A stretch of DNA of 64,000 nt from a virus. Its lineage: Duplodnaviria; Caudoviricetes. The notes under the pieces were generated by a model that ran no database searches, was not told the origin of the DNA, and saw only the letters and a list, made by a program, of their open reading frames with translations. The position numbers were made by a program, and so were the translations under genes. Shown here piece by piece: positions 1-53,400 of the stretch. The stretch is from positions 7,341 through 71,340 of IMG/VR virus record IMGVR_UViG_3300020045_009568; one strand, given 5' to 3'. Within the stretch, counting starts at the first letter, position 1. The number at the start of each line of letters is the position of its first letter.

Positions 1-1082
1 GGGTTTATTTTTTCGGTAATCTCTGCCACCCTTGCGCTGATTGCTTCGGGTATTCCACCAGGTCCGGCCAGGATGCTAAACTCATCGGTGCATTCAAACT
101 TTACAAGAGATCCGAGATATTCAGGAACTTCTTTATCGCTGATATTGTCCAGATTATAGCCAGTTTCAGCAGAGCAAAACTTTGCGCCGGTAAAAGTGGC
201 AATATCTTTCAGCACATCACGGGTGCCACGAATACCCAACGAAAGGGAAACAGCGCAAACTTCCAGCCCCTTTGGAATATTTGCGTTAAGAGTGCCCAGC
301 GCTTCGCCTGCAATATCTGTACAGAAAATAATCAGCGGGAGTTTTGCTTCGTGGGCATAATCCAAAAACTTCATCATATCCCCGTTTTTGGTGATTGCTT
401 TATCTGTTACAAAAACCAACGGCGCAGCATAAGCGCAACCGATAGTATTAGGAATGTTGGCGAAGTACTGGCTGGCATAACCCATATCTAAGCGCATGCC
501 GGCAACAGTTTCCAAATAGGTTTGTTTTTGCGTTTCACGAACACTGATTGCCACACCCGGACCAACCTTTTCATAAGCCTCTGCGATCATGCCGCCGATA
601 AATGTATCTCCATTGGCAGAAGTGGTTGCCAGCTGCGAAATCTTTTTAATATCCGGCTTACCATCCACCACCAGCGGAACAGCTATTTTTTTTATCTCTT
701 CAACACATAAAGCCAACTCTTCAACCAATTGCTTTTTAAGATCAACAATGTTTTGCCCTGACTTCATGCGCCTGTTCACCTCATTGATCAGGTTGTAAAG
801 CAGCACAGTTGAAGTTGTAGTACCATCTCCAGCGTCTTTTACCGTCTTGTTGGCCGCTTCCCGGAAGATTTTAATTGCTGCATTGATAAACTGATCATCG
901 GTGCACTCAATTTCATTTGCCACTGTCACACCATCCTTTGTGTACCGGCCACGATCCAGCAAGTTTGATATTATAACTGTCTTACCCTTTGGGCCCATGG
1001 TACATGCTACTGGCTTGTAAAGCATTTCTGCACCAGCTAACATTTTTTCCCGGGCTTCGTCGCCAAAAATTAATTTTTTCAT
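1..1082 (-). CDS. groEL: Phage GroEL-like chaperonin, 5' part (runs off the window)
   Basis: Manual translation from ATG at 1082: MKKLIFGDEAREKMLAGAEMLYKPVACTMGPKGKTVII...TKDGVTVANEI...DAGDGTTTSTVL. Has the GPKG, KDGVTVA and GDGTTT chaperonin motifs; open to position 1; start overlaps the groES stop (ATGA). Confidence 0.93.
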   Translation of the reverse strand, partial: MKKLIFGDEAREKMLAGAEMLYKPVACTMGPKGKTVIISNLLDRGRYTKDGVTVANEIECTDDQFINAAIKIFREAANKTVKDAGDGTTTSTVLLYNLINEVNRRMKSGQNIVDLKKQLVEELALCVEEIKKIAVPLVVDGKPDIKKISQLATTSANGDTFIGGMIAEAYEKVGPGVAISVRETQKQTYLETVAGMRLDMGYASQYFANIPNTIGCAYAAPLVFVTDKAITKNGDMMKFLDYAHEAKLPLIIFCTDIAGEALGTLNANIPKGLEVCAVSLSLGIRGTRDVLKDIATFTGAKFCSAETGYNLDNISDKEVPEYLGSLVKFECTDEFSILAGPGGIPEAISARVAEITEKIN

Positions 1083-1333
1083 AGTACGCAGATCAATTGT
1101 TTTTCTTCAAAAAATAAACCATCAACACCCTCATGATGAAATGGGTTGCCCTGGCCTTTCTCATACAACACTGTTGCTCCCGGCTTCAATGCATCGGCGC
1201 AGGTGGTGCCCACAAATAAAACCTTGCCTTTTAACAAGCTGGAAACTGGTATTTTAATATTTGTTTGGCTGGACTGAGCCTCATTAATTGGCTCTACATA
1301 TACTTTTGAAAAGAGGGGTTGCAGGGGATTCAT
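1079..1333 (-). CDS. groES: GroES-like co-chaperonin
   Basis: MNPLQPLFSKVYVEP...KGKVLFVG...LKPGATVLY...FFEEKQLICVL follows the Cpn10 pattern; directly upstream of and coupled to groEL. ATG at 1333 preferred over TTG at 1351. Confidence 0.8.
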   Translation of the reverse strand: MNPLQPLFSKVYVEPINEAQSSQTNIKIPVSSLLKGKVLFVGTTCADALKPGATVLYEKGQGNPFHHEGVDGLFFEEKQLICVL

Positions 1334-1340
1334 GGATTCA

Positions 1341-1359
1341 AAGTTATACAATATAACTT
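1341..1359. promoter_or_regulatory. AAGTTA-N7-TAACTT palindrome (operator-like), copy 1
   Basis: aagtta tacaata taactt; overlaps a minus-strand TAACTTTG (TAnnTTTG) box just upstream of groES. Confidence 0.65.
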
Positions 1360-1537
1360 TTTTACAAAAAATATTTGTGCGGACAGGGGACCGGGACCGT
1401 TATTTTAGCGAAGATCACCATAGCCCAGCAGTGGTAATTTCTCTTTTACTTTTGTGGTTTTATTGTCGTTCTTTTTCATTAGCGCAAAGCAAATTTTAAG
1501 AGGGTTTTTAAGCTAATCTGCTGCATTGAAACCTGTC

Positions 1538-1566
1538 GTCGCTCATAACTAACTTTTATGTTAAAC
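1538..1566 (+). other. dif/Xer-like site (E1 left)
   Basis: gtcgctcataa ctaactt ttatgttaaac versus E. coli dif ggtgcgcataa tgtata ttatgttaaat (8/11 and 10/11 arm matches, 7-bp spacer). Confidence 0.55.
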
Positions 1567-1688
1567 ACGGCGCACGGCCTACGTTTCATCGCTTAAGAGT
1601 AAAATGTATTTTTCTTTTTTTACCCTCGCTACATGCAATAGATTATGTAGGAGATTTTAGCGTAAATTGCAAATAACTAAAACAATCA

Positions 1689-1937
1689 ATGATGAAGTTC
1701 AATATTGGGCATAGCCTTAATCAAAACAAAGAAGAGTGGAATTTATTTAATGACTTTTTAGAAACTCTTTCAAGTGAATATGCGGATGAATTTAAAAAGG
1801 AAATGTACAGCAATGAAAGATTTATGGCGGTTGGCATAAGCGGGAAACCAGCAGACATAACATACGCATTCAATCCGAGCGTCCCGGATGAAATTCAACG
1901 TAAGATTGTAAGTAAACTAAAGGAGATTTTCCCTTAA
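1689..1937 (+). CDS. Small hypothetical cargo protein in E1 (82 aa)
   Basis: Intact ORF behind an A-rich leader and a gattttagcg-taaattgc motif shared with E2; opposite strand to the flanking phage genes. Confidence 0.7.
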   Translation: MMKFNIGHSLNQNKEEWNLFNDFLETLSSEYADEFKKEMYSNERFMAVGISGKPADITYAFNPSVPDEIQRKIVSKLKEIFP

Positions 1938-2096
1938 CTCAAGGGCATGTTTGAATGAATCTGTAGATTCAATAATTGAAATGAAATTTTCCTTGTCGTA
2001 AATAACTCCAACTCCATTTATATCAATCGTTACTTTATTTTCGGTAACGTCAATTTGTAGTTTTTTTTCGGAGACAATTTCTTTTTCGCTTGACAT
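1917..2096 (-). CDS. Possible second small cargo ORF in E1 (59 aa, MSSEKEIVSEKK...)
   Basis: Internal ATG of track ORF 1917..2381; protein-like composition; convergent with 1689..1937. Confidence 0.4.
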   Translation of the reverse strand: MSSEKEIVSEKKLQIDVTENKVTIDINGVGVIYDKENFISIIESTDSFKHALELRENLL

Positions 2097-2314
2097 GGGA
2101 TTTTTGTACTTTTTTTTATCATTGCGCAAAAACAAACCGTTCCGGTTTAAAGAGAGCCTCCGGCGCTTCAAAAAAGAAAAATACATTTCCCTCTTTCGCT
2201 CCGCCAACTGCACGGCGAAAAGTTTGAAAAAAAATATAACTTTTCGCTGCCACGCTTCTCCTTGCCCTACCCCTCCCACGTCACTTTGTTCGCCAACCCT
2301 GTTTTTCGGCGTGC

Positions 2315-2343
2315 CGCCAACATAATATTGAGTTATGATCAAC
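2315..2343 (-). other. dif/Xer-like site (E1 right, inverted)
   Basis: Reverse complement reads gttgatcataa ctcaata ttatgttggcg (cataa-N7-ttatgtt core). Confidence 0.45.
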
Positions 2344-2504
2344 GGACAGGTTATTCTTTTGTGGGTGGCTTTACAAGCCACGTGGGCAGCAGATTACTGC
2401 GATTATTTTTTCTTTTTTTGGTTGAATTTTGTTGTTAAAAATAATCGCAGGGCTTAAAAACCCTCTTAAAATTTGCTTTGCGCTAATGAAAAAGAACGAC
2501 CACG

Positions 2505-2523
2505 AAGTTATGTATTGTAACTT
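2505..2523. promoter_or_regulatory. AAGTTA-N7-TAACTT palindrome, copy 2
   Basis: aagtta tgtattg taactt between the E1 right IR and the integrase stop. Confidence 0.6.
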
Positions 2524-2540
2524 ACCAACCAAATATTATT

Positions 2541-4100
2541 TCAACCAGCCAGCGCAGCCGCAAAATCCTCCAACAGTTGTCCGTCAGTTAGGATGCGGAT
2601 ACCATCCTCAAATAAAGCGTCTTTTATGGACGCTTTATTTATTTCCAGCAAACCTAATTCTTTTAAAGTCAATGCTTTATCTGCAAAAAGTGGGTGTATT
2701 CCGGCAGTTGTCCAAATTCCATCAGAATAGTGACCATACCCGGACAAAACAACTTTTAAAAACAGTTGCTTGCGTATCAGGTCAAGTTCGTGAAATGATT
2801 TTTTAAGGGTGCCCAGCTTTGTTAAAACCTCATCCAGCTTGTAGTTCAGCGCCGTGGTATCTTTCGTTGCGTTCGCCAATTGTTCCTCCAAACCCGTTTC
2901 CTCCGCCCGTAGCTCATTCATTATTTTACTGTACACTAAAACATCAATATCAGGGTTTAAAAGGTACCTGCTTTGCGTGGTGGCAATCTTTGCCTTCACC
3001 TTGTCCATTTGCATCTTTAGCCGCATGATAACGCCACCTTTGTCCTTGCTGTGCTTTTCAATGGATTGGTTCAGGGCTTCCCGGATAGCCTGAATTGATT
3101 TTTCAGGTACCGCCAGCACATCCAGCATTTTATCCATGGATGCATGCACTTTGGCAGCGGAGAAGTTTTTACGGTGGGTATCACATTTGTAATACCAGTA
3201 AAACCGTGAGTAACCTTTGGACCGGCCAGCAGTCATTTTTCTGCCACACTCCGGGCAGATCATCCAGCCACGCAGATAAACATCCTCTGCAGGCTGGTGG
3301 CTGTTATTTTTGCCGTTTAATTTAACCTGAGCGGTGTAGTACTCTGATTTTGTAATAATGGGCTTATGGATTGCTTCTACTTCGTATCCGGGCTTTCCTT
3401 TATAAGCTGGCACCTGAATAATACCGGCATAGATACTCCGCTCCAAAATATCCCGGATTGCGGACCGGTTAGTTTGCGTAAATTCCGGAATCTTACGCTT
3501 TATTTCAAACATGGGTACGCCCTGGTTGAAGAGCTTGAAAATCTTTTTTACAATTTCTGCTTTGTGGGGGTCAATAACGATCATGGAGCTTTTACCCTGC
3601 CGGTTGTTGAGGTAGCCATACGGCGCTTTCCCAGTAAACCGTCCGCTGGCCAATGTCCGATACATGCCATCTTTGGTACGTTCCTGTATCCTGTTCCTTT
3701 CGTTGTTGGAGAATAGTAAATTTATGGTCCGCATCAGCTGCACGCCCAAATCCTTGTTGTTCTGGCCGACCGGATCTGTAACACTCAGGACCTTTACGCC
3801 CAGTTTATCTTCAATCTCATTGAGCTTCACCAGTGCATCCAGCAGGGTAGCCCGGGAAAACCGATCAATGTGGTAGATAACCAGCGCAAAAACCTTTTTA
3901 TTAGTTTTGATGTATTGCTCCAGCGCCTTCCATTCTGGCCGGTCAAAGGTAAAACCGCTCTTGCCGTTCTCTACAAATGCTTTTGCAATAGTTAATCCAT
4001 TGGCTTTGCAGTAGGCTTTCATTTGCTCATCCTGCATATCCAGGCTATTCGACTGGTCGGTTGTTGAAAGTCTGCTATAGGTAACTACCAGGCTGCTCAT
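2541..4100 (-). CDS. Large serine recombinase (phage integrase)
   Basis: N-terminal resolvase motif YSRLST and DRFSR, recombinase domain GRFTGKAPYGY, zinc ribbon CPECG...YYKC, coiled coil; 519 aa. Confidence 0.95.
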   Translation of the reverse strand: MSSLVVTYSRLSTTDQSNSLDMQDEQMKAYCKANGLTIAKAFVENGKSGFTFDRPEWKALEQYIKTNKKVFALVIYHIDRFSRATLLDALVKLNEIEDKLGVKVLSVTDPVGQNNKDLGVQLMRTINLLFSNNERNRIQERTKDGMYRTLASGRFTGKAPYGYLNNRQGKSSMIVIDPHKAEIVKKIFKLFNQGVPMFEIKRKIPEFTQTNRSAIRDILERSIYAGIIQVPAYKGKPGYEVEAIHKPIITKSEYYTAQVKLNGKNNSHQPAEDVYLRGWMICPECGRKMTAGRSKGYSRFYWYYKCDTHRKNFSAAKVHASMDKMLDVLAVPEKSIQAIREALNQSIEKHSKDKGGVIMRLKMQMDKVKAKIATTQSRYLLNPDIDVLVYSKIMNELRAEETGLEEQLANATKDTTALNYKLDEVLTKLGTLKKSFHELDLIRKQLFLKVVLSGYGHYSDGIWTTAGIHPLFADKALTLKELGLLEINKASIKDALFEDGIRILTDGQLLEDFAAALAG

Positions 4101-6976: not shown

Positions 6977-7050
6977 TGGCAAGTAGCTCAGTTGGCTAGA
7001 GCGTTTGACGGTTAATCAGAAGGTCGCTGGTTCAAGCCCAGCCTTGCTAA
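6977..7050 (+). tRNA. tRNA-Asn(GTT) with G33; CCA not encoded
   Basis: Cloverleaf: acceptor TGGCAAG/CTTGCTA, D stem GCTC/GAGC, anticodon stem TTTGA/TCAGA with loop CGGTTAA, T arm GCTGG-TTCAAGC-CCAGC. Confidence 0.85.
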
Positions 7051-7069
7051 CAACGTCATACACAGAGAG

Positions 7070-7256
7070 AAGGATGGAATGCTAAGGTGAAAGTCCTTAG
7101 CTATGCGTCACCGGCTAAATCGGGTGATAATCGCAGCGTAACTGCCGAAGCTAATCAAAGGGAAGTGGAATTGCTGCCCATCCTTTGAAGGTGACCTGTA
7201 GCAAATTAAATCGCTGCATGTGGTGGCACATGCTACAGCCGGGTAAGACCGGCTTT
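7070..7256 (+). ncRNA. Unclassified structured RNA between tRNA and tmRNA
   Basis: aaggatgg/ccatcctt closing helix; gctaagg-tgaaagt-ccttagc, tcacc..ggtga, tgtagca/tgctaca, gcatgtg/cacatgc and agccgg-gtaaga-ccggct hairpins; no long ORF. Confidence 0.55.
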
Positions 7257-7285
7257 ATAAAGAAGTTCTTTGATCAAACATAAAT

Positions 7286-7347
7286 GATAGTTGCCTGACG
7301 GCTATTAGACGCTTATTCGGACGGGGGTTCGATACCTCCCACCTCCA
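7286..7347 (+). ncRNA. ssrA: tmRNA acceptor piece (standard 3' end) of a permuted ssrA
   Basis: ttcggac GGGGG TTCGATA CCTCC CACCTCC A: GGAC motif, T arm, 3' acceptor strand and discriminator A. The 5' boundary is approximate. Confidence 0.8.
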
Positions 7348-7505
7348 CAAGATTACACCTTGCCCAGTTTTGGTCCGCTGGCTTTTGCTGATTGAACCAT
7401 TAAGCGAAAGTTTAAAAAGATGAGAAGGTGTAATCTACTTTATTTGGCAGTTGCCATTTGAAAGCTAACCAGCCGCTTTAGTGCTGTTCAGCCTTCGGGC
7501 TGTTT

Positions 7506-7650
7506 GGGGGTGAATGGTTTTGACGGTAAGTAGTAGGTAGCAATAGACTATCAGTAACAAAACAAAAGGCAAAGTAATCGCCTTTGGTAAGCCGCAGCTT
7601 AGAGCAGCCGCCTAACCAACGAAACTGGCCCCCGCCGTAAAAGGGGGCTA
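7506..7650 (+). ncRNA. ssrA: tmRNA coding piece (standard 5' end plus tag ORF) of a permuted ssrA
   Basis: GGGGGTG AATGGTTTTGAC pairs with CACCTCC giving G3.U70; tag frame 7568-7615 GKVIAFGKPQLRAAA*; hairpin ggccccc..gggggct follows. The 3' boundary is approximate. Confidence 0.8.
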
Positions 7651-7853
7651 TTTTAAACTTTTTTTCTTGGCAGTGCAATCGTTTAACCCGGTGTTGTTTT
7701 TACATCTGCCGGCTATTTTAAAAAATTGTTTTGATCAACATAAAGAGAATGTTTTTCTATAGGAGGAAAAACAGTTTGTTCAACTAGGGCTGCGTTTCTA
7801 CGCTGGCCCGCTTATTAAGTCACTTATTTATTCATCATAAAAAACAAAGCACA

Positions 7854-7994
7854 ATGCGTAAAATGAAAGTGATCTACAAGGATCCAAAAGAAACAGGCGA
7901 AGAAGTTGCACAGGATGCAATTGGCCCCACAGCAAGTCCGGAAGAAAATGCTGGTGGCGTTGAAGCCCCTGCAAGCGAGGCCGAACAGGCTTAA
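7854..7994 (+). CDS. 46-aa acidic micro-protein (MRKMKVIYKDPKETGEEVAQD...)
   Basis: Manual translation; A-rich leader; same strand as neighbours. Confidence 0.5.
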   Translation: MRKMKVIYKDPKETGEEVAQDAIGPTASPEENAGGVEAPASEAEQA

Positions 7995-34269: not shown

Positions 34270-34454
34270 CAAAAGTAGCACTTGTTTTGAATAATCAAAA
34301 AAATATTTGTGCGGACATGGGACCGGCAACAATCGAGTAGCAGCTATAGCCAGGCAGCGGTAATAGTCATTGATCTTTTGGGAAGTGTGTCAGTTCTTTT
34401 TATCTATGCGTTTGAATTTCTTTTGGCTTAAAAATAGGCTGCAAGGAATTGCCC

Positions 34455-34483
34455 TTTACCTATAACTAATTTTTATGTTAAGC
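34455..34483 (+). other. dif/Xer-like site (E2 left)
   Basis: tttacctataa ctaattt ttatgttaagc (9/11 match to the XerD arm). Confidence 0.5.
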
Positions 34484-34656
34484 AGGCGCACACGCCTTCC
34501 CGTTATGAGTGAAGTGTATTGTATTTTTTTTCTCCCGCCCTGCTGCGAGTATTAGTAGCCCGGATAGATTTTAGCGAGTAAATTTTGGAGTAATTAAAAA
34601 AAGTGTAGTTTTGAAATAGAAAAACGGAGCTGCGAACTCCGTTCCTCTTCTTAATC

Positions 34657-34758
34657 TTAAAGCAGTAATAGCTTAAGGATTTCGACAATAGACTTGACAA
34701 TCAGCATAATGCTGACGACTTTTCCCAGTTTGTCGCTGGGCAATTTACCAGTTCTCAT
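34657..34758 (-). CDS. 33-aa hydrophobic peptide, type I toxin-like
   Basis: MRTGKLPSDKLGKVVSIMLIVKSIVEILKLLLL*, by manual translation. Confidence 0.4.
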   Translation of the reverse strand: MRTGKLPSDKLGKVVSIMLIVKSIVEILKLLLL

Positions 34759-34765
34759 AAGGATG

Positions 34766-34798
34766 AAAGTTGACTGTTTTGACAGTCAACTTTTTTTT
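34766..34798 (+). terminator. Strong intrinsic terminator inside E2
   Basis: aaagttgactgt-tttg-acagtcaacttt perfect 12-bp stem plus T run. Confidence 0.75.
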
Positions 34799-34969
34799 CG
34801 AGCAAGCGTCCATGTTTGCAGGGATACTTCTTTCGTTCCAAATGATTCGCAGATTGAACCTGTCAGGTTATCCATACAAATATATCACATTACATCATGC
34901 AAATCCTTTGCTGTCCGCACTGGAGTATTAACCCATTGAGTAGATTGTGTTATTAGATTAATTTATAAA

Positions 34970-35470
34970 TTGTGTGGAATTAAAACAACTGATATGGAAA
35001 AGGAAATGACAATTTCTGACAAGCTGCATTCAGATGCAGCCATGACAAGAGGGATTATTATAAATGAAGTTGCTCACCTTGAAAAAATGATTGACGCATT
35101 TTTGTCAATGTACTTCGTGCAGGTCGGAAAGCAAACTACATTTTACTTAGTTTTTTTATCTCAAATGCAGCTTACCAAGAAAGTCAACATTTTTAAAGAC
35201 ACCGTTAGCTCTTACAAGAATGATTTTGTAAAAAACAATCCAACCTATAGCGTTGATCTTGGCAAAATAATAGAGCAAAGGAATTTGCTTGCACATGAAA
35301 TAATAGACCTTTCAAAGGGAGGGTTTTTGAAATATTCCAAAGGGTATGTGCAGTTTGACAATTTCAAAAAGAAAAGAAAGGTAACCGCATTCGGCAAGAC
35401 AGATGTAAAAAACCTTATAGCATTAATTCAGAAATATACTATAGCTGTTACTGAATTACTTAGCAAGTAA
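34970..35470 (+). CDS. HEPN-motif protein (MtlR-like HEPN, predicted RNase), cargo of E2
   Basis: Helical protein with RNLLAH (Rx4H) after LEKMI...F...KKVNIF; opposite strand to the late operon. Confidence 0.65.
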   Translation: MCGIKTTDMEKEMTISDKLHSDAAMTRGIIINEVAHLEKMIDAFLSMYFVQVGKQTTFYLVFLSQMQLTKKVNIFKDTVSSYKNDFVKNNPTYSVDLGKIIEQRNLLAHEIIDLSKGGFLKYSKGYVQFDNFKKKRKVTAFGKTDVKNLIALIQKYTIAVTELLSK

Positions 35471-35673
35471 AGTTTGGGCACCGGAATCCCCTTTCAGATT
35501 GGTACGTTAGCTACCGTACTTCATCGTCTTAAAGGGAACTCCATCGAGTTTATAATAATTTGTGTAGAAGGAAACGCCTTGCGGCGTAAAGAGGGCTCCG
35601 CATCTCAAAAAAAATACAATACACTTCCCTCATAGCCTTGCTGCCCCTCCCACATCGCTTCGCTAGCTAACCT

Positions 35674-35703
35674 GAATAACATAATATTGAAGTTATAGGC
35701 GAA
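35674..35703 (-). other. dif/Xer-like site (E2 right, inverted)
   Basis: Reverse complement reads ttcgcctataa cttcaata ttatgttattc (8-bp spacer). Confidence 0.45.
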
Positions 35704-35850
35704 AGCGCAATATTCTTTTTGTGGTTGTTTTTTCAAAACAAGTAGGCGGCCTATTTTAAGATTTTCTTATTACATCCTGTTTAGGGAAGCTGTATAAGAA
35801 AATCTTAAGCCAAAAGAAATTCAAACGCATAGATAAAAAGAACTGACACA

Positions 35851-35869
35851 AAGTTATGTAATGTGACCA
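35851..35869. promoter_or_regulatory. Degenerate AAGTTA-N7-TAACTT palindrome, copy 4
   Basis: aagtta tgtaatg tgacca, at the same position relative to E2 as copy 2 is to E1. Confidence 0.4.
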
Positions 35870-40995: not shown

Positions 40996-43900
40996 TTAAC
41001 GGCTTTCGTCTTTTTGTTTCTTCTTCTCAATTTGAAATTCCTTCATGTTCGCATTCTTCCAGGTTAGCAGCAATGATTTTGCATAGCCTGTTAACTCTTT
41101 CCCTGCCTTTTCTTTTGCTGCATCATCTTTAAGGTTGAAGTATTCACCAGCCATATCAGAAAATGCTTTGTAGTCACGGCTACGCTCCATGTTCCATTCC
41201 TTCGCAAACTTCACAAGCTCCTGCACCGATTGTGAATTGTAAGCAGGGGAGTGTTTGAAAAACCCAAGGTCGGTAATATCAAAAGTTTCGTTTGATTCTT
41301 TATTCCCGATATCAGAGAGTTTCATTGCGGTATTACCAAAATAAGAGAACTGGCCACGTATAAAGTGATCAACCTTTCGTCCATCAATACCAGCCGCCTG
41401 CTGCACTAATAGCCCTAGCCTTGAAGCGGTTTCGGTATGTCGTAATTCCAGCGCCAAGTTTGCTTCATGAGCCGGGATGATTGTTTTCTCCCTGTAAAAA
41501 TCATAGTTGGCTACATTCTCAACTATCGGACGCAGGAATCCTGCAGCAGCAGCTTCATCAAATGGCATCATTGATTTTGCAACAGTGCCGGCATATCCTT
41601 TATATGCATCCTCTCTTTTGTATGCGATGTTGCTAAGTACCCTGTCCATGCCAGCGGCAGCTAAACTCAACTCGTATGGCTTTGGAATAGAGAGCCACTT
41701 GTTTGGCCCAATTTTATAATTCCAGTACATATCCCTTTGGTATGCCGGTATCTCTTCGTATTCGTCAGCAGTTTCCTTATCACGATGATTCAGGTACCAT
41801 AAACCTGCTGCCGGAAGTATTGAATATAAAGCAGTTCTTAAGGCAAATCCTGCCGGATTTTTGGCGATACTTACAGCTGTTGATCTCATACCCTGCACAG
41901 CCGCATTTGTGAACGGTATAAGTTGGTTGACCATGCGCATAGTGTGTCCTGCCACTGCGAAGTCAATCAGGTCCCTGGCTTTGTATGCGCCATACAGCAT
42001 AGCGTTATAATCATCCATCCCCTTTGCCTTTGCTTCTCTTATGCCGCCACGATATTCAGCAACCCGGTTGGCTGTTTCTGATTTATACAACAGGTTTTCA
42101 TACCCATGCCATACATCTTTTAATCTTACAGGATCCAGCAGAATAAATTTTTTATTTTTCGCCATTTCATCCATGGTAGTTTCGAGTAACCCGTAGTAAT
42201 GGCTGCGATCCCTGAAATAAAATCCTGCATTTAATCCGCCAGCTTTTGCAACATCCTGCCAGTGGGCTTTATTGCCAACGAAATCTTTTAGCCCCGATCC
42301 TGTAGTGGATTTTATTAAGCGGTCCTGCGTATCCCTTACAATATTCCTTGCGGCAAAAGTGGGGAAGTGGGTAACGGTAAACCGCAGCAACTGGCCCGGC
42401 ATGCGCATAATGCCTGGTAAATTCCACAAGTCGCCGTCAAGGTTTTTAATTGCCCTGTGAATTTCAGGATGAAATACCCACGTTTCTGCTTTGCCATCCA
42501 CGAATATTTTCTGCGAATTCTTGTCACCCTCTTTTCCGAGAAAGCCGATATCAGAATAAGCCTTTACATCCCCCTGGTTCATTTGCCTTTGCTCCATGAT
42601 CATATCCCTGAAAGTTCGCATCACCTCATTACGGTCTGCTTCTTTTATGGACTTGTTCATATTTTCAAGCAATACAGAATACGGGTTGGCAATCTCCTTT
42701 GATGATCCCTTGATCGCAAATATTGGTTGCTTAACAGAGCCCAGCGCCTTGCCTCCGCCGCCTTTCAATCCCATATCAATCTCTACTCCGGGCTCAGCTT
42801 CAAATATGCGGTTCATAGCCACATATTGAATGTTGTTTTGTTTTATAAACTGGTATCCACCAATTAAGTTGCCGTCTTTATCTTCCACTCTATCTGCAAT
42901 CCTTCCCTTGGCAACCATGTATTGTAATATATCATCAGCTAACTCACGGTAACGGGTAGCCGCTTCTTTAATTCTTGCCAGCCTTTTGGGGTCGCCATTG
43001 TCGAATTCTTCCAATGTTTTTGTAGCAACATCCAGGTCTTTCAATATGCCGCCGCCGGTACCGGTAAGTACATCTGCACGATTAAATCTTTTTGCAAGCT
43101 CTACCGCTCTTTCAGATACCATGTACGCCAGTGTATCTTCCATATCCCTCATGATAGAGCCTGTATCGGTATTGTCCAATGGCTCCAGCAACCACTTTAC
43201 ACTTTTAGGCTTGCCATTCTTATCCTGCAATCTGTTCAGCTTGGCATCCACCATCCCGTTATTTACTATGTCATCAAACTTGCCATTGTAACCCAGTAGC
43301 AACCGTGACAATATAATGGGATCGTTCTCAGGCAACACTTCATCAACACCACGAATTCCTTTTGAAAATTTGAATGCTTTATTAAAAGCCTGCATTGGTT
43401 GCAGGAGGTTAGCGGCAAACCTGTCCGTCCAGTTCAGGTAAAATTTACCTGCTTCATCATGACCAAATAGTTTTTGCCAAACACTTTTATCTTCTGGCTT
43501 AATTTCAATATTAGCCAACGTTTTATCTCTCCCGCTTGCGCCGGCCCATGTTCTTATATCGATAGAAAGTTCTTCAACTGATTTCTTGGTGGCATCGTCA
43601 ACCTTATTCTGGTAAATCTTGTGGATCTCCGGCGCATCGTAAATTGCCTGTTTTGGGTTTACGATAAAAGCCCTTACCCATTCGGCAACACCTTCCGCCC
43701 GTTTGTATCTGTCAGGATTTGGATGGCCCTTTGGTGGCTTGCTTGCGGCCGGGGAATTCATGAAGTATGGCAATTCTTTGGCAGCTGCAGGGTTTGCCAT
43801 TATAGCATCTGTGATATGATGAACGTCATCCAGTTTATGCCCAAACTCATGCGAAGTTGTATCCAGGTCGCCGCTGTACCGCAATTTTATAGCAGCATTG

Positions 43901-46900
43901 CTTGGCGTATATGTACCTGCAGCACCCCTTGAAACCTTAGCGTAAAATATTTTTTGATTTACTTTTTTTGCAAACTCCCGCAGGATTTTAGAAAGATTTT
44001 TAGGCTTGCCCCCAACAATCGGATCGGTAGAAATTCGGCCGGTTACATTGATTGGTTTAGCGCCGGCCACCTCTTCATAAAATCTTTTCTTGGCTGGTTC
44101 CTCAAACAGATCAGGATTGTCGCTGTCGGCCTCAACACCTGCATCTTTGGTTGCTTTATCCAGTGCAGCTTTGGCTTCTTTTACTTTGGCTTTGAGTGGG
44201 TCTAAAATATCTTTGGCATCGTTTTGTTCAAACATGCCTTTTTGTGCAGCAGCGTTACCGAAAATATCAGTTTGGGTAGATTGCTCTTTGGAGAGTTTTT
44301 CCTGTACGGCTTCTAATTTACGAACAGCTTTGTCGTATTCAGCCTTGAAAGAGTTTATTTTATCTTGGATGGAAGATTGGCCTTCGCCTGGCTTTGGTGC
44401 CTCCGGTTTAATTTCACTCCCCGCAGTTTCAGGCTGTCCAGTGCTTCCTTGTCCTTCATTATTTGGTGAGCTTTCATTTTTGTCAACAACGTACTCAGGT
44501 TCTGCTTGTCCATGTAGCTTTTCTTTTAATAATTTGTCAATGTATGTAGTAGCTTCCGGGGTGAGGTTTAAAAAATCAGGGTCAAAGCCATTGGAATCTT
44601 CTTCCATTTTATCCCAATTGATAGCACCCTGCTCGTTGTATCTTTCCAATAAAGATATTAACTCTTTTTGAATGTTTTCGGGGATTTTTTCTACTTCATT
44701 CTCGACCGCTTTAAGCATTTCATTACCAATCACTTCGCTTTCTGCTTCGGTTAAGTTCTTTTCAATGCCGCTGCCATATCTGTCAACAAGCTCTTTTGCC
44801 ATGCCTGGCGCCGAAACGTGATCTTTCAAAACAGTTTCAATCGCTTCCCTGTAATCCTGCGTAGTATACTGATTGTCTGCATCTAAGCGCTGGTTGCCCT
44901 CTTCCCACATTTGATGGGCAAGCTCATCAATGCCTTTTGCATTCTTGTTCAAAAGCGTAAACCGGGATTTCCTTTCGCCTTCGGCAGATGCATTTTGACG
45001 AATGGCTTCGCTTTTGCCCCCATACAGTTCCTCTATTACAGAGGTATTTATCTTGCCGCCATCTGCAAAATGCTTCAATACGATATCTCTTGGCGCAAAC
45101 GTGGTATCAATTTCCAGTTCCCTTGCTTTTTTCATCAACCCCTTTTCTTTAATGGGCTTATCCGCAACAGTTACCTTGTTCCTGTCGAATACAATCAGCT
45201 CACCTTCCTGCGTATCGCTTTCCCTGAAATACAAGGCATCGTATCCTTGCTTCTGGTAATCTTCTGTAACGAGTTTGGCCGCCTTAGTCCTGGCGGATTG
45301 CTCAAAATAGTCCTCGTTGATCTTGTCGCCCTGTACCGATTTATACCACTGGCTCACCTGCTCATTACTTGGTTCTTTTGTACCGGCAAATTTTTGAACA
45401 TCTTTGGTGTATTCAAAAGGAATATCCTTAAACTCAATTTTGTTTTCATTCAGTAATTGCCCCAACTTTTCCTGCTGCAACTTGGCATTTTCAACATAAT
45501 CCGTCAGCCTTGGATTTTCAATATTCACCTTGGCTTTTTTGGCTGCCTTGTCTTTGGTGGAATAACGGTTGCCCGATTCTGTTGATAGATACATGCCTTC
45601 GGCCTGCTTTGCTCCCATGCCGGTATTTTCAACATGAGTAAGCCCCAGTGATTTTATTTCTTTGATGATCGCCTCGTCCGGTTTGGCTTTAGGGATTTCG
45701 GGCTGTGCTGGTTCAGTAGTCGCAATATCTTCTTTTGGTGCTTCCGGCTGCAGCATTTGCCTGCGTTCTTCCTGTAATACTTTTACCTCTTCTTTAATAG
45801 GCTCAATCTGTACCTTATCAGTAAGCTCACTAATTTGTTGTTCAGCCTGTTTTTCATTCAGCAGGTTCACGGCATACTCAGCCTGCTTATTTTCAGGCAA
45901 TGTTTTTGGCAGGTCTTTGCTATTGCGTATCTCTGCCAGTTTGGTAACAATATCTAGTTTGGCAGCAGCATCTTCCGGGTTTAATTTCCCAGCCTGTACC
46001 GCCGCTTCAAGATCAGTTTTAAAAGCATACACATCCTTGCTTGCCTCAAAGGCGCTGTTGATCACTTCTGCACGATTCTTTGCTTCTTTGGCTACGCCAC
46101 GGCCATGCAGGATGGATAGCGGGCCAAATATGATAGCATTGTGGGCAAATGTTTTGGCAATATCAAATTGATGTTCGCTTGCTGATTGTTGGTTAAACAA
46201 TGCCTCAACAGCTACATCTTTTAATTCATTCGCTGTAAGAATAGTGGATGCACTCAGGTTATTTGCAATGGCATTTTTAGCAGTATTGTAAACGAAATTG
46301 CCCACCACTTCCGGTGTCATTGCCTGTACGCCCTCTTTTGGGATTAACGAAGCAAAATCTTTTGCAGCTGCTTTTGTGAAAAATGCTTTTTTCACCAGCC
46401 CCTCCGGATCTAGTTTTGCAAATAATAATCCTCCCAGCGTGCCAGTGATCAATGCGTATGCTTTTTGCTCTATTGGGTCTTTGGTAAAAGTTTTAGCCCA
46501 TTCAATTCCATCATCATAAGTCAGCGCTACATTGCTTGCAATGTTTGATGCAACATGAGCGCCGGTAGTGCCAAGTCCTGCTGTTTTCGCCAATGCTCCA
46601 AAAGCCTTGTTCCCAATGATGAAATTTGTAACTGTAGCCATAGCTCCAGCAACTCCTTGCCCACTGCCATAGCCCCAGTTTAATTGGCCTGCTTTTTCGT
46701 TGTCGATAGGCTTTAAAAAGGTTTCGCCTTTTTCGGTATCTATAATTGAACCTGGTTGCTCAAATTGCTTATTTGGGTTTACAGCACTGTATTCAGCCAT
46801 TGCCACTTTCCCGAACGCTTCCGATTCTGGCGTTTCCGATCCCAGCAATCTTGCAGCAGGCGCACCCATTTTATTGAACCCTTCCGCCGTCTTTAAAATA

Positions 46901-48129
46901 TAGCTTGGCAGAATTGCTGTACCCTGAATTTCGCCCGGGTTATTTAAAAAATAATCTTCTTCTTTTTTGGAGAAGGTTGCACCACGTTCTTTTAAAGTAT
47001 TGATTGCTTTTTGCGCTTCTATTTTTGTTGGAGTAGCCCTGAATACATTTTGCCACACAGTATTTACAGAGCTATAATCTCTCTCTTCGTCAATTATTTG
47101 TCCGAGCGCCTGGCTGTAAACTTTAATCTTTGCTCCGGGGTGTCTGTCAAGCGAAGTGCTTTCTGCTTTGTTCAGCAAATCCATTTGTGTTTGATATTCC
47201 GCAGGGTCAATCTCTTTATTATTCATCCTTGCAACCAAGTCTGTTCTCTTTGCATCAATGCCGGCATTTTCAAATTGAAAGTTGCGAATATCGACAACAT
47301 CACTACCCGGACCCCACGATAGATTTTTATTGTCTTCCTGGTGACGCTGTACGGCATCCGGAACTTGTATCTTGCTTACATTGGCCCCCAAAGATTGCAG
47401 GTATGCCGGTAGTTCTGTTTCTGTTTTCGGCATTGGCATTTTAGCAACAACAGTTTTCGTGTTGGCCAATCCTGCGTACTTCTCCAGCATTGATTGCTCG
47501 TCGTCAATATCATCTAATTGCTGCTGGTAGGCTTCGTATTGTTTAATATTTTCTTCCCTACGAACAGAATGGCCTGATGAGTGCTGCAGATAATAATCAT
47601 CTAAATTCTTTTTTACAATCTCCCGTTGCTGCTGCAATTCATCTTTCTTCTTTTGGTAGAATGTTGTAACATCTTCGCCGGGCTTTAATCCCATATTGGT
47701 CAAATAGGCATCGCTGGCCTCATATTGAATGGCAGGGTTATTTCTTTCGAGTACAATATTTTTTTCCAGTTCTTTTGATTGCTCAGGCGCCGCTATTTTG
47801 CCGCCGAGCTTTGTATGCAATGCATCTTCGGCTTTATTTAATTCAGGCGCAAACTTTGGTTTAAGAATACTTCTGTCCTGTATTGACTTAACAGTATCTC
47901 CATAGGCTTCTGTGCCAGGCATTAGCCTTCTGCGACCAAATACATTGGAATCTTTGAATCCGGAAGGTTGCGCTGATGGCGGAGTAGTTGCCGCCTGTTC
48001 TGGCTCCAGCGAAGGCAGGTCATCAACGCTATTATATTGAGATACTTCTTTTGTAGAAGGATCAACTTTTATTACCGGCTCATTAAGGGCTGGCAATTCT
48101 TCAACGCTACTATACTTACTCTTGCCCAT
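40996..48129 (-). CDS. Large polyvalent/ejection protein (ART-like, zincin-like and LPD38-like regions)
   Basis: 2377 aa; GMYLST..NIENP..GYDALYF..ELIVFDR (ART-PolyVal-like), HEFGH..AEGVAE (zincin), C-terminal YWNYKIG..LSIPKPYEL (LPD38-like). Confidence 0.75.
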   Translation of the reverse strand: MGKSKYSSVEELPALNEPVIKVDPSTKEVSQYNSVDDLPSLEPEQAATTPPSAQPSGFKDSNVFGRRRLMPGTEAYGDTVKSIQDRSILKPKFAPELNKAEDALHTKLGGKIAAPEQSKELEKNIVLERNNPAIQYEASDAYLTNMGLKPGEDVTTFYQKKKDELQQQREIVKKNLDDYYLQHSSGHSVRREENIKQYEAYQQQLDDIDDEQSMLEKYAGLANTKTVVAKMPMPKTETELPAYLQSLGANVSKIQVPDAVQRHQEDNKNLSWGPGSDVVDIRNFQFENAGIDAKRTDLVARMNNKEIDPAEYQTQMDLLNKAESTSLDRHPGAKIKVYSQALGQIIDEERDYSSVNTVWQNVFRATPTKIEAQKAINTLKERGATFSKKEEDYFLNNPGEIQGTAILPSYILKTAEGFNKMGAPAARLLGSETPESEAFGKVAMAEYSAVNPNKQFEQPGSIIDTEKGETFLKPIDNEKAGQLNWGYGSGQGVAGAMATVTNFIIGNKAFGALAKTAGLGTTGAHVASNIASNVALTYDDGIEWAKTFTKDPIEQKAYALITGTLGGLLFAKLDPEGLVKKAFFTKAAAKDFASLIPKEGVQAMTPEVVGNFVYNTAKNAIANNLSASTILTANELKDVAVEALFNQQSASEHQFDIAKTFAHNAIIFGPLSILHGRGVAKEAKNRAEVINSAFEASKDVYAFKTDLEAAVQAGKLNPEDAAAKLDIVTKLAEIRNSKDLPKTLPENKQAEYAVNLLNEKQAEQQISELTDKVQIEPIKEEVKVLQEERRQMLQPEAPKEDIATTEPAQPEIPKAKPDEAIIKEIKSLGLTHVENTGMGAKQAEGMYLSTESGNRYSTKDKAAKKAKVNIENPRLTDYVENAKLQQEKLGQLLNENKIEFKDIPFEYTKDVQKFAGTKEPSNEQVSQWYKSVQGDKINEDYFEQSARTKAAKLVTEDYQKQGYDALYFRESDTQEGELIVFDRNKVTVADKPIKEKGLMKKARELEIDTTFAPRDIVLKHFADGGKINTSVIEELYGGKSEAIRQNASAEGERKSRFTLLNKNAKGIDELAHQMWEEGNQRLDADNQYTTQDYREAIETVLKDHVSAPGMAKELVDRYGSGIEKNLTEAESEVIGNEMLKAVENEVEKIPENIQKELISLLERYNEQGAINWDKMEEDSNGFDPDFLNLTPEATTYIDKLLKEKLHGQAEPEYVVDKNESSPNNEGQGSTGQPETAGSEIKPEAPKPGEGQSSIQDKINSFKAEYDKAVRKLEAVQEKLSKEQSTQTDIFGNAAAQKGMFEQNDAKDILDPLKAKVKEAKAALDKATKDAGVEADSDNPDLFEEPAKKRFYEEVAGAKPINVTGRISTDPIVGGKPKNLSKILREFAKKVNQKIFYAKVSRGAAGTYTPSNAAIKLRYSGDLDTTSHEFGHKLDDVHHITDAIMANPAAAKELPYFMNSPAASKPPKGHPNPDRYKRAEGVAEWVRAFIVNPKQAIYDAPEIHKIYQNKVDDATKKSVEELSIDIRTWAGASGRDKTLANIEIKPEDKSVWQKLFGHDEAGKFYLNWTDRFAANLLQPMQAFNKAFKFSKGIRGVDEVLPENDPIILSRLLLGYNGKFDDIVNNGMVDAKLNRLQDKNGKPKSVKWLLEPLDNTDTGSIMRDMEDTLAYMVSERAVELAKRFNRADVLTGTGGGILKDLDVATKTLEEFDNGDPKRLARIKEAATRYRELADDILQYMVAKGRIADRVEDKDGNLIGGYQFIKQNNIQYVAMNRIFEAEPGVEIDMGLKGGGGKALGSVKQPIFAIKGSSKEIANPYSVLLENMNKSIKEADRNEVMRTFRDMIMEQRQMNQGDVKAYSDIGFLGKEGDKNSQKIFVDGKAETWVFHPEIHRAIKNLDGDLWNLPGIMRMPGQLLRFTVTHFPTFAARNIVRDTQDRLIKSTTGSGLKDFVGNKAHWQDVAKAGGLNAGFYFRDRSHYYGLLETTMDEMAKNKKFILLDPVRLKDVWHGYENLLYKSETANRVAEYRGGIREAKAKGMDDYNAMLYGAYKARDLIDFAVAGHTMRMVNQLIPFTNAAVQGMRSTAVSIAKNPAGFALRTALYSILPAAGLWYLNHRDKETADEYEEIPAYQRDMYWNYKIGPNKWLSIPKPYELSLAAAGMDRVLSNIAYKREDAYKGYAGTVAKSMMPFDEAAAAGFLRPIVENVANYDFYREKTIIPAHEANLALELRHTETASRLGLLVQQAAGIDGRKVDHFIRGQFSYFGNTAMKLSDIGNKESNETFDITDLGFFKHSPAYNSQSVQELVKFAKEWNMERSRDYKAFSDMAGEYFNLKDDAAKEKAGKELTGYAKSLLLTWKNANMKEFQIEKKKQKDESR

Positions 48130-50424: not shown

Positions 50425-53400
50425 TTAAGTATTTGTAAAATGACCTTCTTTTAAAATGAAATTTGTACTGGCCGATTTCAGTGTTGCTTTTTTATCAAAC
50501 GTCAGGTATATGAGCAGACACTTGCCATGCATTTTTTGCCCCTTCATTTGCCTGTCGAAAAATTGACTGCCAGCATTCACATCCAGCCTATCCCTGAATA
50601 ATGGTGCGTATATAACCCCCTCTTTGTTTACAAAATCTTCTGATACCAGGTCGCTGCTTTGCACGATTGGATCTTCGGTACGTACATGCACAAACGATGG
50701 CGCCACGGTGCTTTCAAGTGCAATACCTGCAAAGCTCTTTGGTCCTTGCATAAGGTTTACCGGTATCGCTACGCCTGATGTGTATTCTTTGCCGTAAATT
50801 TTATCCGATGCAGTATTGTGCAGATAAAGGTTTCCTTCGTTGATGCTGTACAGATCATCACCAAGCCGTATAAATGTTTCAGCAGAAAAATTGAATGGCG
50901 CTCCCCAGTAGTCAAAATCAGATTTATATACAAGCGTTTTGCTGCGTCCATCGTAAACATCATACGGATACGGTACACTATCGTAGTCTTCTAAAAATCC
51001 CTTTGGCGGAACTTCTAGCGTTTTTGGTATGGTAAATAAAAATTCCCTGTGATACGGGTCGCATCCGCCGATCACCAGCTGATCATCCAGTATATCATTT
51101 GAAAGAAGATTGACCACTCTTGTAAGCTTGTTTTTACTGATCGGGAAAAGCCCATTATTCGAATACCTTACAAAACATGCGTTTCGTTTGTCATACCAAA
51201 CCACAAACCCATTATATTCAAATACGCTTTCTGGATGGCTGGTGCCCATGCTGCCGGCCAATGCTTTGATGTTGCCCAGCACATTATCTGCTTTTGCCAC
51301 ATAGGCACTGCCTTGCGTATCCAGTAATTCTGCTTCTCCAAGGTAGATGCTGGCTGTTTCGTTGGTGCAAATTGCCAGCATAACAGTGCCGTCCGCCTGC
51401 ACCTTTTTAGTAAGTTTTAATTTGCGCAAAAAACCATACTCTCCAGGTATTGAAACTTTATTGAGCGCTGAAAAAGAGGAAAGTCCATTTATTTTCGTTC
51501 CTTTCACATATACATCACTGAAACAAATTGCATTTGATCTTTGCTTTCCTATCTTGTCAATATAGTTTGGTCGGCTTGCACTGGTATTCCAAGCTTTCCA
51601 ATAGCGATCATTTGGAGCCATGGCCTCTGCGTAATAATCGGCAAGCGATTCACCTTTTCTTTTTAAGATATAAGTATCCCCTGCAAACGTTCCGCTAAGT
51701 TGGCTGTACGCCCTTGCACTGGTACCGGGATTTAATATTTTGAATGACCTTGCTACTTCATAGAAAGGCTCATTGAGCGAATTGTTATAAGGAGAATAAA
51801 TTTCAAATAAGGTATTTTTTATTCTGGTTACACCTGTAATATTAATTGCACCGCTTCCGCCTCCAGACGCAGGAATACCTGGAACAAGCAATGTATTTTC
51901 AAGAGCGTAACCAATGCCTTTTTTGTTAATAGTAAGCGTGGTGATATTTCCGCCTGTTACAATTGCATCAACAGTTAATCCGGTACCGGTGCCACCGATA
52001 ACAGGCACATTTGTATAAGTGCCATTAACGAGCAATCCGGCACCCGAAACGGCTGTTATAGTGCTTACGTAATCAACCCTTGTTAAACTGCACCAAACAT
52101 ATTTGCCGTCTTGCCCAAGTATATCCAGGTCGATAAACTCATCCAGCACATCAACATACAATTTCATTTTGTCGTTTGGCTGGAAGGAGTACCCGATACC
52201 ATAACTTGATAAGCATGAAATATCAATTGCCACGTAGCCTTCTCTTTCGGTGCTGCCACCCGGGAAATTGTCAGTATATACTATTGCTCCATCATCATCT
52301 TTTTTTACATAAGTAACCCTCGTATATGCCGGAGCGGATTCATTTGCTGCAGGCTTTCCCTGTATGAAGCTTCTTGTATAAAGGCATTTTGTAAGTACCA
52401 GATGAACATTGGTTGCCCATTCTGGTATTTCATGCTCTTTTACCGATAATATTGAGAAGGCAAATCCAAACCCGGAACCACCAATTAGTGAATTATTTAC
52501 AAACGCATCTGGCTTTGGATACCCGGTTAATGGATCGTCAGGAGTTTTGCTGTACCCAACACCACCTATTCTTACCGTAACTGAAATTACAGTGCCGATG
52601 GCTCCAACAATAATATCAACAGATGCGCCAGAACCGGTATTGCCAGCAATAGCTACGCCTTGGTAAATGCCCGGCACGTAACCGCTACCCGGTGAAAAGC
52701 CCTGATCTGCAGAGGTGATGCCAGTTGATGCAACGCTTACGCTTATTATTTCTCCGGCAGAAGATGTATTGCTTAGTTGCCACAAAACGGCATTGCCTCC
52801 AACGGATGCATCAGCAAACTTTCTGTCTGGTATCGCTATTCTTGATGAGCGATATACGCCACAGCGCCTGCTATAGTCATCCGTAAAAAATACACCCGTT
52901 TCGTAAATGCCGCCAGTTTTGAACTGCGGGGCAGTAGGCGCAATTACATAAGGAACATCAGTTAATGTTATATCTGCATTGTCCGTAAATCCGCCCCACT
53001 GGTAAACCACAAAGCTATATCCAGAAGGTGCTGCAGCATTTATTTGGGCGAGTATTTGCGTTTGCAACGTACCCGCTCCACCAATGTATGTGAAGTTTGT
53101 AAAACTATCATTCAGCGGCCCTATAGTAGATGGTATATCTCCGGTACCCAATTTATAATATCCAGACGCAGGGATGCCGAGTATTTCCAGCACCACATAC
53201 TTGTATTCCGTCAGCGCCAGATACCCGGTAGTTGTTTTATAGTACCAGCCTCTTACTGAGTAATTTTTATATGAAGCGGTACTGGTATTTGAGTTGAGAA
53301 TTACCCGGCATTTTAAAGAGTTGTTTGCAGGGGTATCCTGACCGGTAATATAATTGCCAAGTTTAAGTCTATCCTTCGCAATCTCCATCGTTTCAGGATA

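Follow-up and report, generated by a model that had tools for sequence, protein, structure and literature searches.

The question raised by this locus is what a kilobase-long set of nested inverted repeats is doing in the genome of a tailed phage. The element, here called E1, extends over ~1.16 kb (~1362-2523) of a window of 64,000 nucleotides that corresponds to bases 7341-71340 of the 71,340-bp IMG/VR virus record IMGVR_UViG_3300020045_009568, which is rated 100% complete; coordinates below refer to this window unless another sequence is named. A preliminary description made from the letters alone had proposed that E1 is a cassette dependent on the folding back of single-stranded DNA (ssDNA) or RNA, with small open reading frames (ORFs) in its loop. 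Comparison with other phages and with bacterial chromosomes places E1 in a family shared by phages and Chitinophagaceae (Bacteroidota), the bacterial family likely to include the host. Judging from sequence, we consider it reasonably likely that E1 is a mobile gene cassette of this family which depends on Xer recombination, in the manner of the integrative mobile elements exploiting Xer (IMEX) or of integron cassettes.

The pairing arms of E1 and its phage relatives

The outermost repeats of E1, the distal outer arms (X'd at 1465-1513 and Xd at 2452-2500, both on the plus strand), are complementary at 49 of 49 positions, and a search of the window with up to 3 mismatches returned only these two matches of the 49-mer, against a chance expectation of 0. 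Nested within them are the proximal outer arms (X'p at 1514-1524 and Xp at 2386-2396, plus strand, 11 of 11 complementary), an extra 8-bp pair (1530-1537 with 2345-2352), an imperfect dif-like pair of 26 nt (1537-1562 with 2319-2344, 81% complementary) and the inner arms of 26 nt (Lin at 1595-1620 and Rin at 2170-2195, plus strand, 92% complementary), the last of which contain a perfect 19-bp pair (1602-1620 with 2170-2188). All four nested pairs of the preliminary description, including the perfect ones of 49, 11 and 19 bp, were recovered. Because the arms are complementary within each cassette, one strand can fold into a long rod. When 1440-2523 was folded as ssDNA, the minimum free energy (MFE) was -187.6 kcal/mol, and a long-range rod with the ORFs in its terminal loop was retained by both the MFE and the centroid structures, as had been suggested for about 1 kb of single strand. 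The local hairpin described in the right arm is also present, with its extent corrected from 2399-2448 to 2397-2450 (plus strand; 14-bp stem, 2397-2410 with 2437-2450). The stem base of this side hairpin is conserved, reading (T)TGCGA on the 5' strand and TCGCA(A/G) on the 3' strand.

The imperfect pair overlaps two inverted cores. The left core, ATAAC-TAACTT-TTATGTTAA (1545-1564, plus strand), has a right half that resembles a XerD arm and is kept in all family members, and the right core (2318-2336, minus strand) is an inverted copy of ATAAC-N6-TTATGTTA with the spacer TCAATA on the minus strand. A GCGCAC box (1570-1575, plus strand) follows the left core on its 3' side, as it always does in the family and as it also does 3' of the chromosomal dif-like site described below. 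In the right arm, a small hairpin is followed by a C-rich CCCCTCCCAC box (2215-2247, plus strand, an inverted repeat), and the equivalent module of other family members runs from CCCGC through a hairpin to CCCCTACACA. The cargo consists of two convergent orphan ORFs, ORF A (82 aa, 1689-1937, plus strand) and ORF B (60 aa, 1917-2099, minus strand); neither was assigned to a family in Pfam, PHROGs, NCBIfam or PADLOC, and the protein Atlas gave no usable relative for ORF A. A ATTTTAGCG motif (1654-1662, plus strand) lies ~30 nt upstream of the sense cargo ORF and likewise precedes the sense cargo in three other family members (L078, L200 and L171); it is possibly a cassette promoter.

The phage record contains one other copy, E2 (~34292-35867, plus strand), which has homologous arms and different cargo. 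Its outer arms (34386-34431 and 35805-35850) pair at 46 of 46 positions, its left core lies at 34462-34481 and its inner arms at 34504-34531 and 35607-35634. The alignment of E1 with E2 covers a 100-nt leader with GGGACC, both arms and ~20 nt past the right arm. In E1 this common leader (1362-1464, plus strand) holds a Bacteroidota-type -7-like box, two tandem copies of GGGACC (1387-1398) and a further ATTTTAGCG motif. The outer-arm sequence is unlike between the two copies, and each pair is nevertheless perfectly complementary. The cargoes are unrelated, that of E2 comprising an HEPN-like ORF (34994-35470, plus strand) and a strongly hydrophobic ORF of 33 aa (34657-34758, minus strand). The latter is followed by a terminator-like hairpin (34620-34645) and, standing beside the HEPN-like gene, resembles a small membrane toxin or holin-like peptide.

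Some ten other phage contigs contain copies. Scans of viral contigs with the two conserved cores gave L010/L011, L019, L032, L064, L072, L074/L080 and L078, and L182, L312 and L337 were added later. They have a common design in which two inverted cores, with a part-mismatched central spacer and a right half that equals the XerD-arm consensus of dif, are flanked on both sides by complementary arms specific to each element. From the left, a phage copy consists of a promoter-like box with GGGACC, which precedes the outer arm as it does in E1, then the outer arm or arms, the left core (ATAAC-nnnnTT-TTATGTTAA), GCGCAC and the inner arm; the cargo (0.4-1.2 kb, with ORFs on either strand) is followed by the second inner arm, the small hairpin with its C-rich box, the right core (spacer TCAATA or TCTATA), the outer arm and the side hairpin. 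A distal outer arm after the side hairpin occurs in some copies only, and the long outer repeat is missing in L312 and L182. No empty platform, that is, promoter, GGGACC and outer hairpin without a cassette, was found; among 87 exact matches to arms of the L011 type, the relevant ones were the three known occupied copies. E1 DNA had no similarity among 50,697 phage records, and viral contigs yielded no match either to an exact search for the E1/E2 leader motif or to a search for close relatives with the integrase.

Pairing within elements was far better than between them. The outer arms of one element pair at -36.7 kcal/mol, versus -17.2 kcal/mol (sd 5.0) for non-cognate combinations, and the inner arms at -23.4 versus -14.6 kcal/mol (sd 4.0), all with DNA parameters; strong non-cognate energies came only from the near-identical trio L011, L019 and L032. 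We used these energies per element, together with a table of core pairs, because the stems were too diverged for an alignment: MAFFT applied to 19 chromosomal units aligned the cores alone. The table holds 32 left/right pairs, of which ~8 rows are mis-registered or spurious, and in it the binding-arm segments are Watson-Crick paired in 26-32 of 32 rows. Compensatory changes occur before ATAAC (position -1; T-A, G-C or C-G), at its last base (+4; C-G or G-C) and just after it (+5; T-A, G-C or A-T). The 6-nt spacer is systematically part-mismatched, with positions 6, 8 and 10 being Watson-Crick in 2/32, 8/32 and 4/32 rows, respectively. Integron attC sites have a part-unpaired spacer between two paired arms. 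The same is true of CTXphi attP(+) (PMC4246890). Among the predicted pairs of 26 chromosomal units, G.T-type pairs make up 5.5% when one strand is considered and 6.6% for the other; as wobble pairs favour neither strand, a constraint at the level of DNA fits better than one on an RNA made from one strand.

Chromosomal arrays beside a dif-like site

A scan of bacterial chromosomes (one genome per species) returned many matches in the Chitinophagaceae and Chitinophagales, including Sediminibacterium, Ferruginibacter, Flavisolibacter, Niastella and Taibaiella, and at least 15 Chitinophagaceae loci have the same design as the phage copies. The finding of these repeats in many independent assemblies indicates that they are not an assembly artefact. 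The chromosomal unit is circularly permuted and compact, measuring ~180 nt with the cores and ~330 nt with the inner arms. It begins with an inner arm, the C-rich module, the right core and a stem, turns at a tip formed by the TTGCGA hairpin, to which the side hairpin of E1 corresponds, and returns through the stem, the left core, GCGCAC and an inner arm. As DNA, these units fold at -44 to -56 kcal/mol. Relative to them, all phage copies are opened just after the conserved hairpin and not in a core, which puts the cargo in the loop and lets the phage genome leave from the stem base.

In each of the three genomes that were searched in full, exact core matches fell within a single locus. The two complete Sediminibacterium chromosomes have a single unit each, and Ferruginibacter (G001, contig 8, 136,351-146,449) has a row of at least 10. 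The locus is syntenic, being bordered by serA/cutC and, at the opposite end, by a GSDH gene, a 455-aa ORF and gyrA. In the Ferruginibacter row, one identical site is joined to different cassettes and the identity ends immediately after TTATGTTAA; inner arms pair within one cassette and not across to its neighbour (L194). One Ferruginibacter cassette encodes a Fic/Doc-family protein, preceded by a small ORF that is possibly its antitoxin. Another encodes a distant homolog of the E2 cargo (25% identity, E = 4e-8), which has weak HEPN matches in PADLOC; an Rx4H motif can be read in both proteins. The tyrosine recombinase nearest to the Ferruginibacter array is 74 kb away, and three of Xer size are encoded elsewhere in the genome. 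In the cassette row of L200, a Ferruginibacter metagenome-assembled genome (MAG; JBAOHS010000008.1, 136-146 kb), a two-cassette block occurs twice and another cassette at least three times as exact tandem duplicates, which may reflect real amplification or an effect of assembly, the contig being nanopore-derived.

The rows are headed by a site that, to judge from its sequence and setting, is probably the dif of Chitinophagaceae; at dif, bacteria untangle their chromosomes. Two genera share the 19-mer ATAATTAATATTATGTTAA without a difference, placed ~0.8 kb upstream of the locus. When up to 1 mismatch is allowed, this near-invariant 19-mer stands at the start of the row in 15 loci, with yCyT before it and, in every case, an A..GCGCAC box after it. 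The site is single-copy in the genome. It reads CCTATAA-TTAATA-TTATGTTAAAn, that is, CCTATAA-TTAATA-TTATGTTAA with the XerD arm common to the cassette cores, and its spacer differs from that of the right core by one base. It fits the bacterial dif consensus quoted in PMC3091885, and dif has been predicted for Bacteroidetes using Proteobacterial profiles (PMC3025954). In the complete genome G003, GC skew measured in 20-kb samples was positive in 10/10 samples between 0.10 and 1.72 Mb, negative in 9/9 between 1.80 and 3.95 Mb and positive again at 4.15 Mb. The dif-like site, at 1.683 Mb, is 40-120 kb from the switch.

A candidate Xer mechanism and its alternatives

The preliminary description had left two possibilities side by side, a mobilisable DNA cassette and an mRNA silenced by pairing of its 5' and 3' ends. 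The former is favoured here; the latter is not, as there is no excess of G.U pairs and the cargo lies in both orientations. Its dif-like label for one of the repeat pairs proved apt, since the cores agree with dif in its XerD arm and a dif-consensus site marks the start of the chromosomal arrays, and its idea that cargo might vary between homologous arms holds for E2, for ~10 phage contigs and for the Chitinophagaceae arrays.

In the proposed mechanism, host XerC/XerD would exchange one strand between dif and the folded single-stranded hairpin, and replication would complete the insertion. A circle carrying the folded core pair would be opened in its left core and inserted at dif, as described for CTXphi. 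The integrated order runs from the left part of dif through the XerD arm, GCGCAC, inner arm, cargo, inner arm, right core, hairpin and left core to the next unit, and from its agreement with the order expected of a CTXphi-type reaction we infer such a reaction. In the left-most site the XerC-type arm and spacer are those of the chromosome, and in every internal or last left core they are its own; this pattern suggests a crossover no further left than the point where the spacer meets the XerD arm. The exchange would then take place on the XerD side, unlike that of CTXphi. The phage rod would be the circularly permuted form, in which the loop contains the cargo and the phage genome continues from the stem base, as in the CTXphi attP hairpin. 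By its sequence, E1 may be either a cassette that the phage transports or a phage attachment structure that Xer can use, and the cargo of E1 and E2 (two orphan ORFs; an HEPN-like protein and a tiny hydrophobic peptide) would be accessory. No tyrosine recombinase (PF00589) is encoded in the whole 71-kb phage record.

Several points weigh against Xer-dependent movement. The mechanism is deduced from sequence. The permuted layout of E1 and E2 cannot come from a crossover in the core, and both elements lie away from any dif site. A tailed phage with double-stranded DNA (dsDNA) has no obvious single-stranded circular stage. The perfect outer arms of 46-49 bp exceed any need for folding, so that a DNA-level origin, for instance as halves of a palindromic attachment site, is possible. 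ATAA and TTAT are 7 nt apart in the cassettes versus 6 nt in the putative dif, and the identification of the latter rests on its sequence, single copy, conservation and one clean GC-skew profile; that of G002 is noisy between 0.8 and 1.8 Mb. In both genomes dnaA is ~30% of the chromosome away from the dif-like site and not antipodal to it, so its position gives no support to the location of the terminus. MAG contigs also make up the majority of the bacterial examples.

The closest known parallel is the CTXphi-type IMEX, with the mechanism and the forked attP(+) hairpin worked out for Vibrio cholerae CTXphi/RS1 (PMC4246890). Like these elements, the cassette family has no recombinase of its own, and two inverted dif-like sites pair within one strand around an imperfect centre, here according to sequence and predicted folds. 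Its chromosomal relatives are placed next to the probable dif of the chromosome, form tandem stacks and have both half-sites together at the end. E1 resembles CTXphi attP in that the loop takes up a short stretch and the remaining replicon extends from the stem base. The carriers are different, being cassettes of 0.7-1.6 kb without replication or virion genes, or tailed dsDNA phages, unlike CTXphi, a filamentous phage with ssDNA. The folded site is also much larger (~180-330 nt), has an additional GCGCAC box, C-rich box and TTGCGA hairpin, can hold genes in its loop and belongs to another phylum, the Bacteroidota, and its junctions suggest crossover on the side of the XerD arm, unlike the XerC exchange of CTXphi.

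The rows of small, mostly single-gene cassettes with imperfect hairpin sites between them are also reminiscent of sedentary integrons and of clusters of attC sites lacking integron-integrases (CALIN). As in attC, there are two binding boxes, an unpaired central spacer and a stem that varies from site to site, and the left core ends in 7 nt (GTTAAAT or GTTAAGY) that agree with the R' consensus GTTRRRY; as in integrons, there is one array per chromosome and the cargo includes toxin-antitoxin-like and defence-like genes. Unlike integrons, however, the family has no IntI or attI and no tyrosine recombinase beside the array or in the phage, its rows are headed by a dif-like site, and many cassettes seem to carry a promoter-like motif of their own. 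The sites (180-330 nt) are 2-4 times longer than attC sites (57-141 nt), and the 7-mers of the right core (e.g. AAGTAAC, CGCCAAC) do not fit the inverse core RYYYAAC.

Two other systems share individual features. In pdif modules, as outlined in the abstracts of PMC13141974 and PMC11705084, accessory genes, often for toxin-antitoxin systems, lie between inverse Xer-type sites in alternating modules, and host XerCD is presumed to act in place of an own recombinase; the present inverted cores bracket both cargo and linker segments in the same way. According to the same abstracts, pdif sites are plain duplexes of 28 bp on Acinetobacter Rep_3/OrfX plasmids, and the present elements differ from them by long covarying arms on both sides of the cores and by their location beside the probable dif in Bacteroidota chromosomes as well as in phages. 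The Microviridae-related BMV proviruses of Bacteroidales (PMC3091885) come from the same phylum, lack an integrase and have dif-like flanks, and in some of them an additional dif-like copy in inverted orientation recalls CTXphi. They are unlike the present family in being 6-kb ssDNA virus genomes with capsid and Rep genes, and neither long hairpin arms nor arrays are reported for them (PMC3091885). Full-text literature searches found IMEX of Vibrio and other Proteobacteria, the Bacteroidales microvirus proviruses, integrons and the Acinetobacter dif modules, and none of these reports describes the present system.

How a phage could obtain the permuted form might be explained by capture at attP, a possible if doubtful route that is compatible with Xer-dependent stacking. 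No transposase lies inside E1, as first described, but its right end abuts the 3' end of a gene for a large serine integrase of 519 aa (2541-4100, minus strand; Pfam Resolvase, Recombinase and Zn_ribbon_recom; best PHROG match integrase, E = 2e-73). This enzyme would have joined a cassette circle or an array period at or near attP; alternatively the phage would have resided within the tip of a chromosomal unit and taken that unit along on leaving. The outer arms would be halves of a palindromic attP, and with a directionality factor the integrase could release the cassette again. Consistent with capture, the att junction comes directly after the integrase 3' end in the related prophages L313 and L314 (at tRNA genes), a cassette lies at most 1 kb from that end in 3 of 9 informative family contexts (the window, L312 and L337) and also, in the opposite orientation and found from the cassette side, in L182, and every phage copy is opened, compared with the chromosomal unit, directly behind the hairpin. 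In the same vein, the relatives L309, L310, L335 and L338 have no cassette at this position. Against capture, an integrase of this kind is missing from the vicinity of E2 and of most other phage copies, L312 and L182 lack the long outer repeat, a perfect palindrome of 98 bp is atypical for the attP of a serine integrase, and neither an empty platform nor such a prophage inside a chromosomal array was seen. The same integrase could instead act as an invertase on DNA between the 49-bp repeats and so switch the convergent cargo ORFs. Perfect inverted repeats around ~1 kb beside a serine recombinase gene, the two convergent ORFs and an additional PHROG match to 'DNA invertase' would suit such an inverton or shufflon, but we regard it as highly improbable: the enzyme is a large serine integrase by size and by best match, E2 and most family members have no recombinase nearby, and flipping fits the neighbourhood of E1 only and not a design that recurs at chromosomal dif-like sites.

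Other accounts do without the single-stranded fold or without DNA recombination. If the cores were ordinary duplex Xer sites in alternating orientation, as in Acinetobacter pdif, cargo would move by cointegration, resolution and inversion between duplex sites and the arms would be unneeded. Cargo and ~140-nt hairpin linker modules do alternate between inverse cores, much as the C and D modules alternate in the abstract of PMC13141974, plasmid Xer sites recombine as duplexes according to that of PMC11705084, and wobble pairs that are equally rare on both strands fit any constraint on DNA. We nonetheless think this unlikely, as it leaves unexplained both the covariation of arms on either side of each core and the recurrence of the same alternate spacer mismatches in nearly all pairs, and the two abstracts mention no comparable arms. 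It would be more improbable still that the element acts as a structured RNA, with a transcript from near GGGACC pairing its 5' and 3' ends to give an RNase III stalk, silencing or a non-coding RNA that bears ORFs. A Bacteroidota-like -7 box and GGGACC do stand before the left arm in all phage copies, and a T run follows the hairpin in some members, such as L074. A long perfect duplex is also a good substrate for RNase III. E1 had no match in Rfam 15, however, either at the gathering score or at E = 10, nor did Rfam at E = 1 give anything relevant on four chromosomal units. The near-equal G.U-type pairs (above) indicate no preferred strand, cargo ORFs run in either orientation relative to the rod, and permuted chromosomal units stacked beside a dif-like site would be left unexplained.

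More tentatively, we suggest that the Xer-dependent cassettes may make up a third gene-cassette system beside integrons and pdif modules, in which integrase-less dif mimics of ~300 nt are stacked by XerCD through an ssDNA hairpin at the dif of Chitinophagaceae, and tailed temperate phages act as shuttles between cells, carrying permuted copies at or near attP that their serine integrase perhaps loads and unloads.

Phage background and wider meaning

To the left of E1 lies groES (1079-1333, minus strand; Pfam Cpn10), and between the two is a palindromic promoter- or operator-like motif, AAGTTATRNNNTRTRAC (1341-1359, both strands), upstream of groES. A palindrome search of the window gave 12 matches versus 0.15 expected. 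The palindrome stands at 1341, 34251, 40963, 54422, 60007 and 60085, each time upstream of a gene; as a 17-19-bp AAGTTATAnnATATAAC it is placed directly 5' of six start codons with almost no leader left, and is probably a phage promoter or operator for a common regulator. Both E1 and E2 adjoin this motif, and half-similar direct copies of it close the two elements, as AAGTTATGTATTGTAAC at the right end of E1 (2505-2521, plus strand) and at 35851-35867 in E2. The groEL and groES genes (3-1333) stand under such a phage-type palindromic promoter. The N-terminus MNPL... recurs in another GroES-like ORF, which starts at ~60110, and the phage seems to encode chaperonin paralogues.

Two other origins of E1 were set aside. 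A transposon, miniature inverted-repeat transposable element (MITE) or mobile insertion cassette did not fit: no direct target duplication flanks the 49-bp repeats, the homology of E1 and E2 extends ~100 nt past the repeats on the left, and there are two copies in the record. The leaders and ends of E1 and E2 were also compared with right and left cores as possible decayed copies, and the alignments were no better than those of shuffles (92/500 and 99/500 shuffles reached the score for the leaders, 108/500 and 493/500 for the ends). L337, unlike that abandoned picture of E1 and E2, has a complete site after its GGGACC leader.

Elsewhere in the phage, ARAGORN gave nothing on E1 and found only a tRNA-Asn(GTT) and a permuted transfer-messenger RNA (tmRNA), at 6977-7051 and 7286-7615 (ARAGORN span 7256-7909). 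The tmRNA matches Rfam RF04321 with 58.6 bits, and its ARAGORN tag peptide ends in ...FLRWPAY. Two very long minus-strand ORFs occupy the structural region (40996-48129, 2377 aa; 50425-54417, 1330 aa). Among relatives of the integrase, those at the prophage ends of L313 (9480-9700) and L314 (9520-9800) abut tRNA genes, which indicates that this integrase family can target such genes. A reverse-transcriptase gene (RVT_1) lies a few kb upstream of the integrase module in L310 (1-433), L312 (298-1287) and L314 (1328-2473), and may belong to a diversity-generating retroelement or be a defence reverse transcriptase.

For annotation, the family accounts for one class of the long, nested inverted repeats that occur between phage genes and supplies a probable dif site for the Chitinophagaceae. 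If Xer recombination does drive these cassettes, the hairpin trick of CTXphi and attC would extend to a new phylum, to kilobase cassettes and to a new vehicle, and a short foldable site with a defined target and host enzymes would offer a simple experimental system for studying how Xer chooses between duplex and folded substrates. The Bacteroidota would then have an integron-like store of accessory genes at the chromosome terminus without a dedicated integrase, with tailed phages among its carriers and a cargo that, so far, consists of toxin-antitoxin-like, HEPN-like and small membrane proteins.

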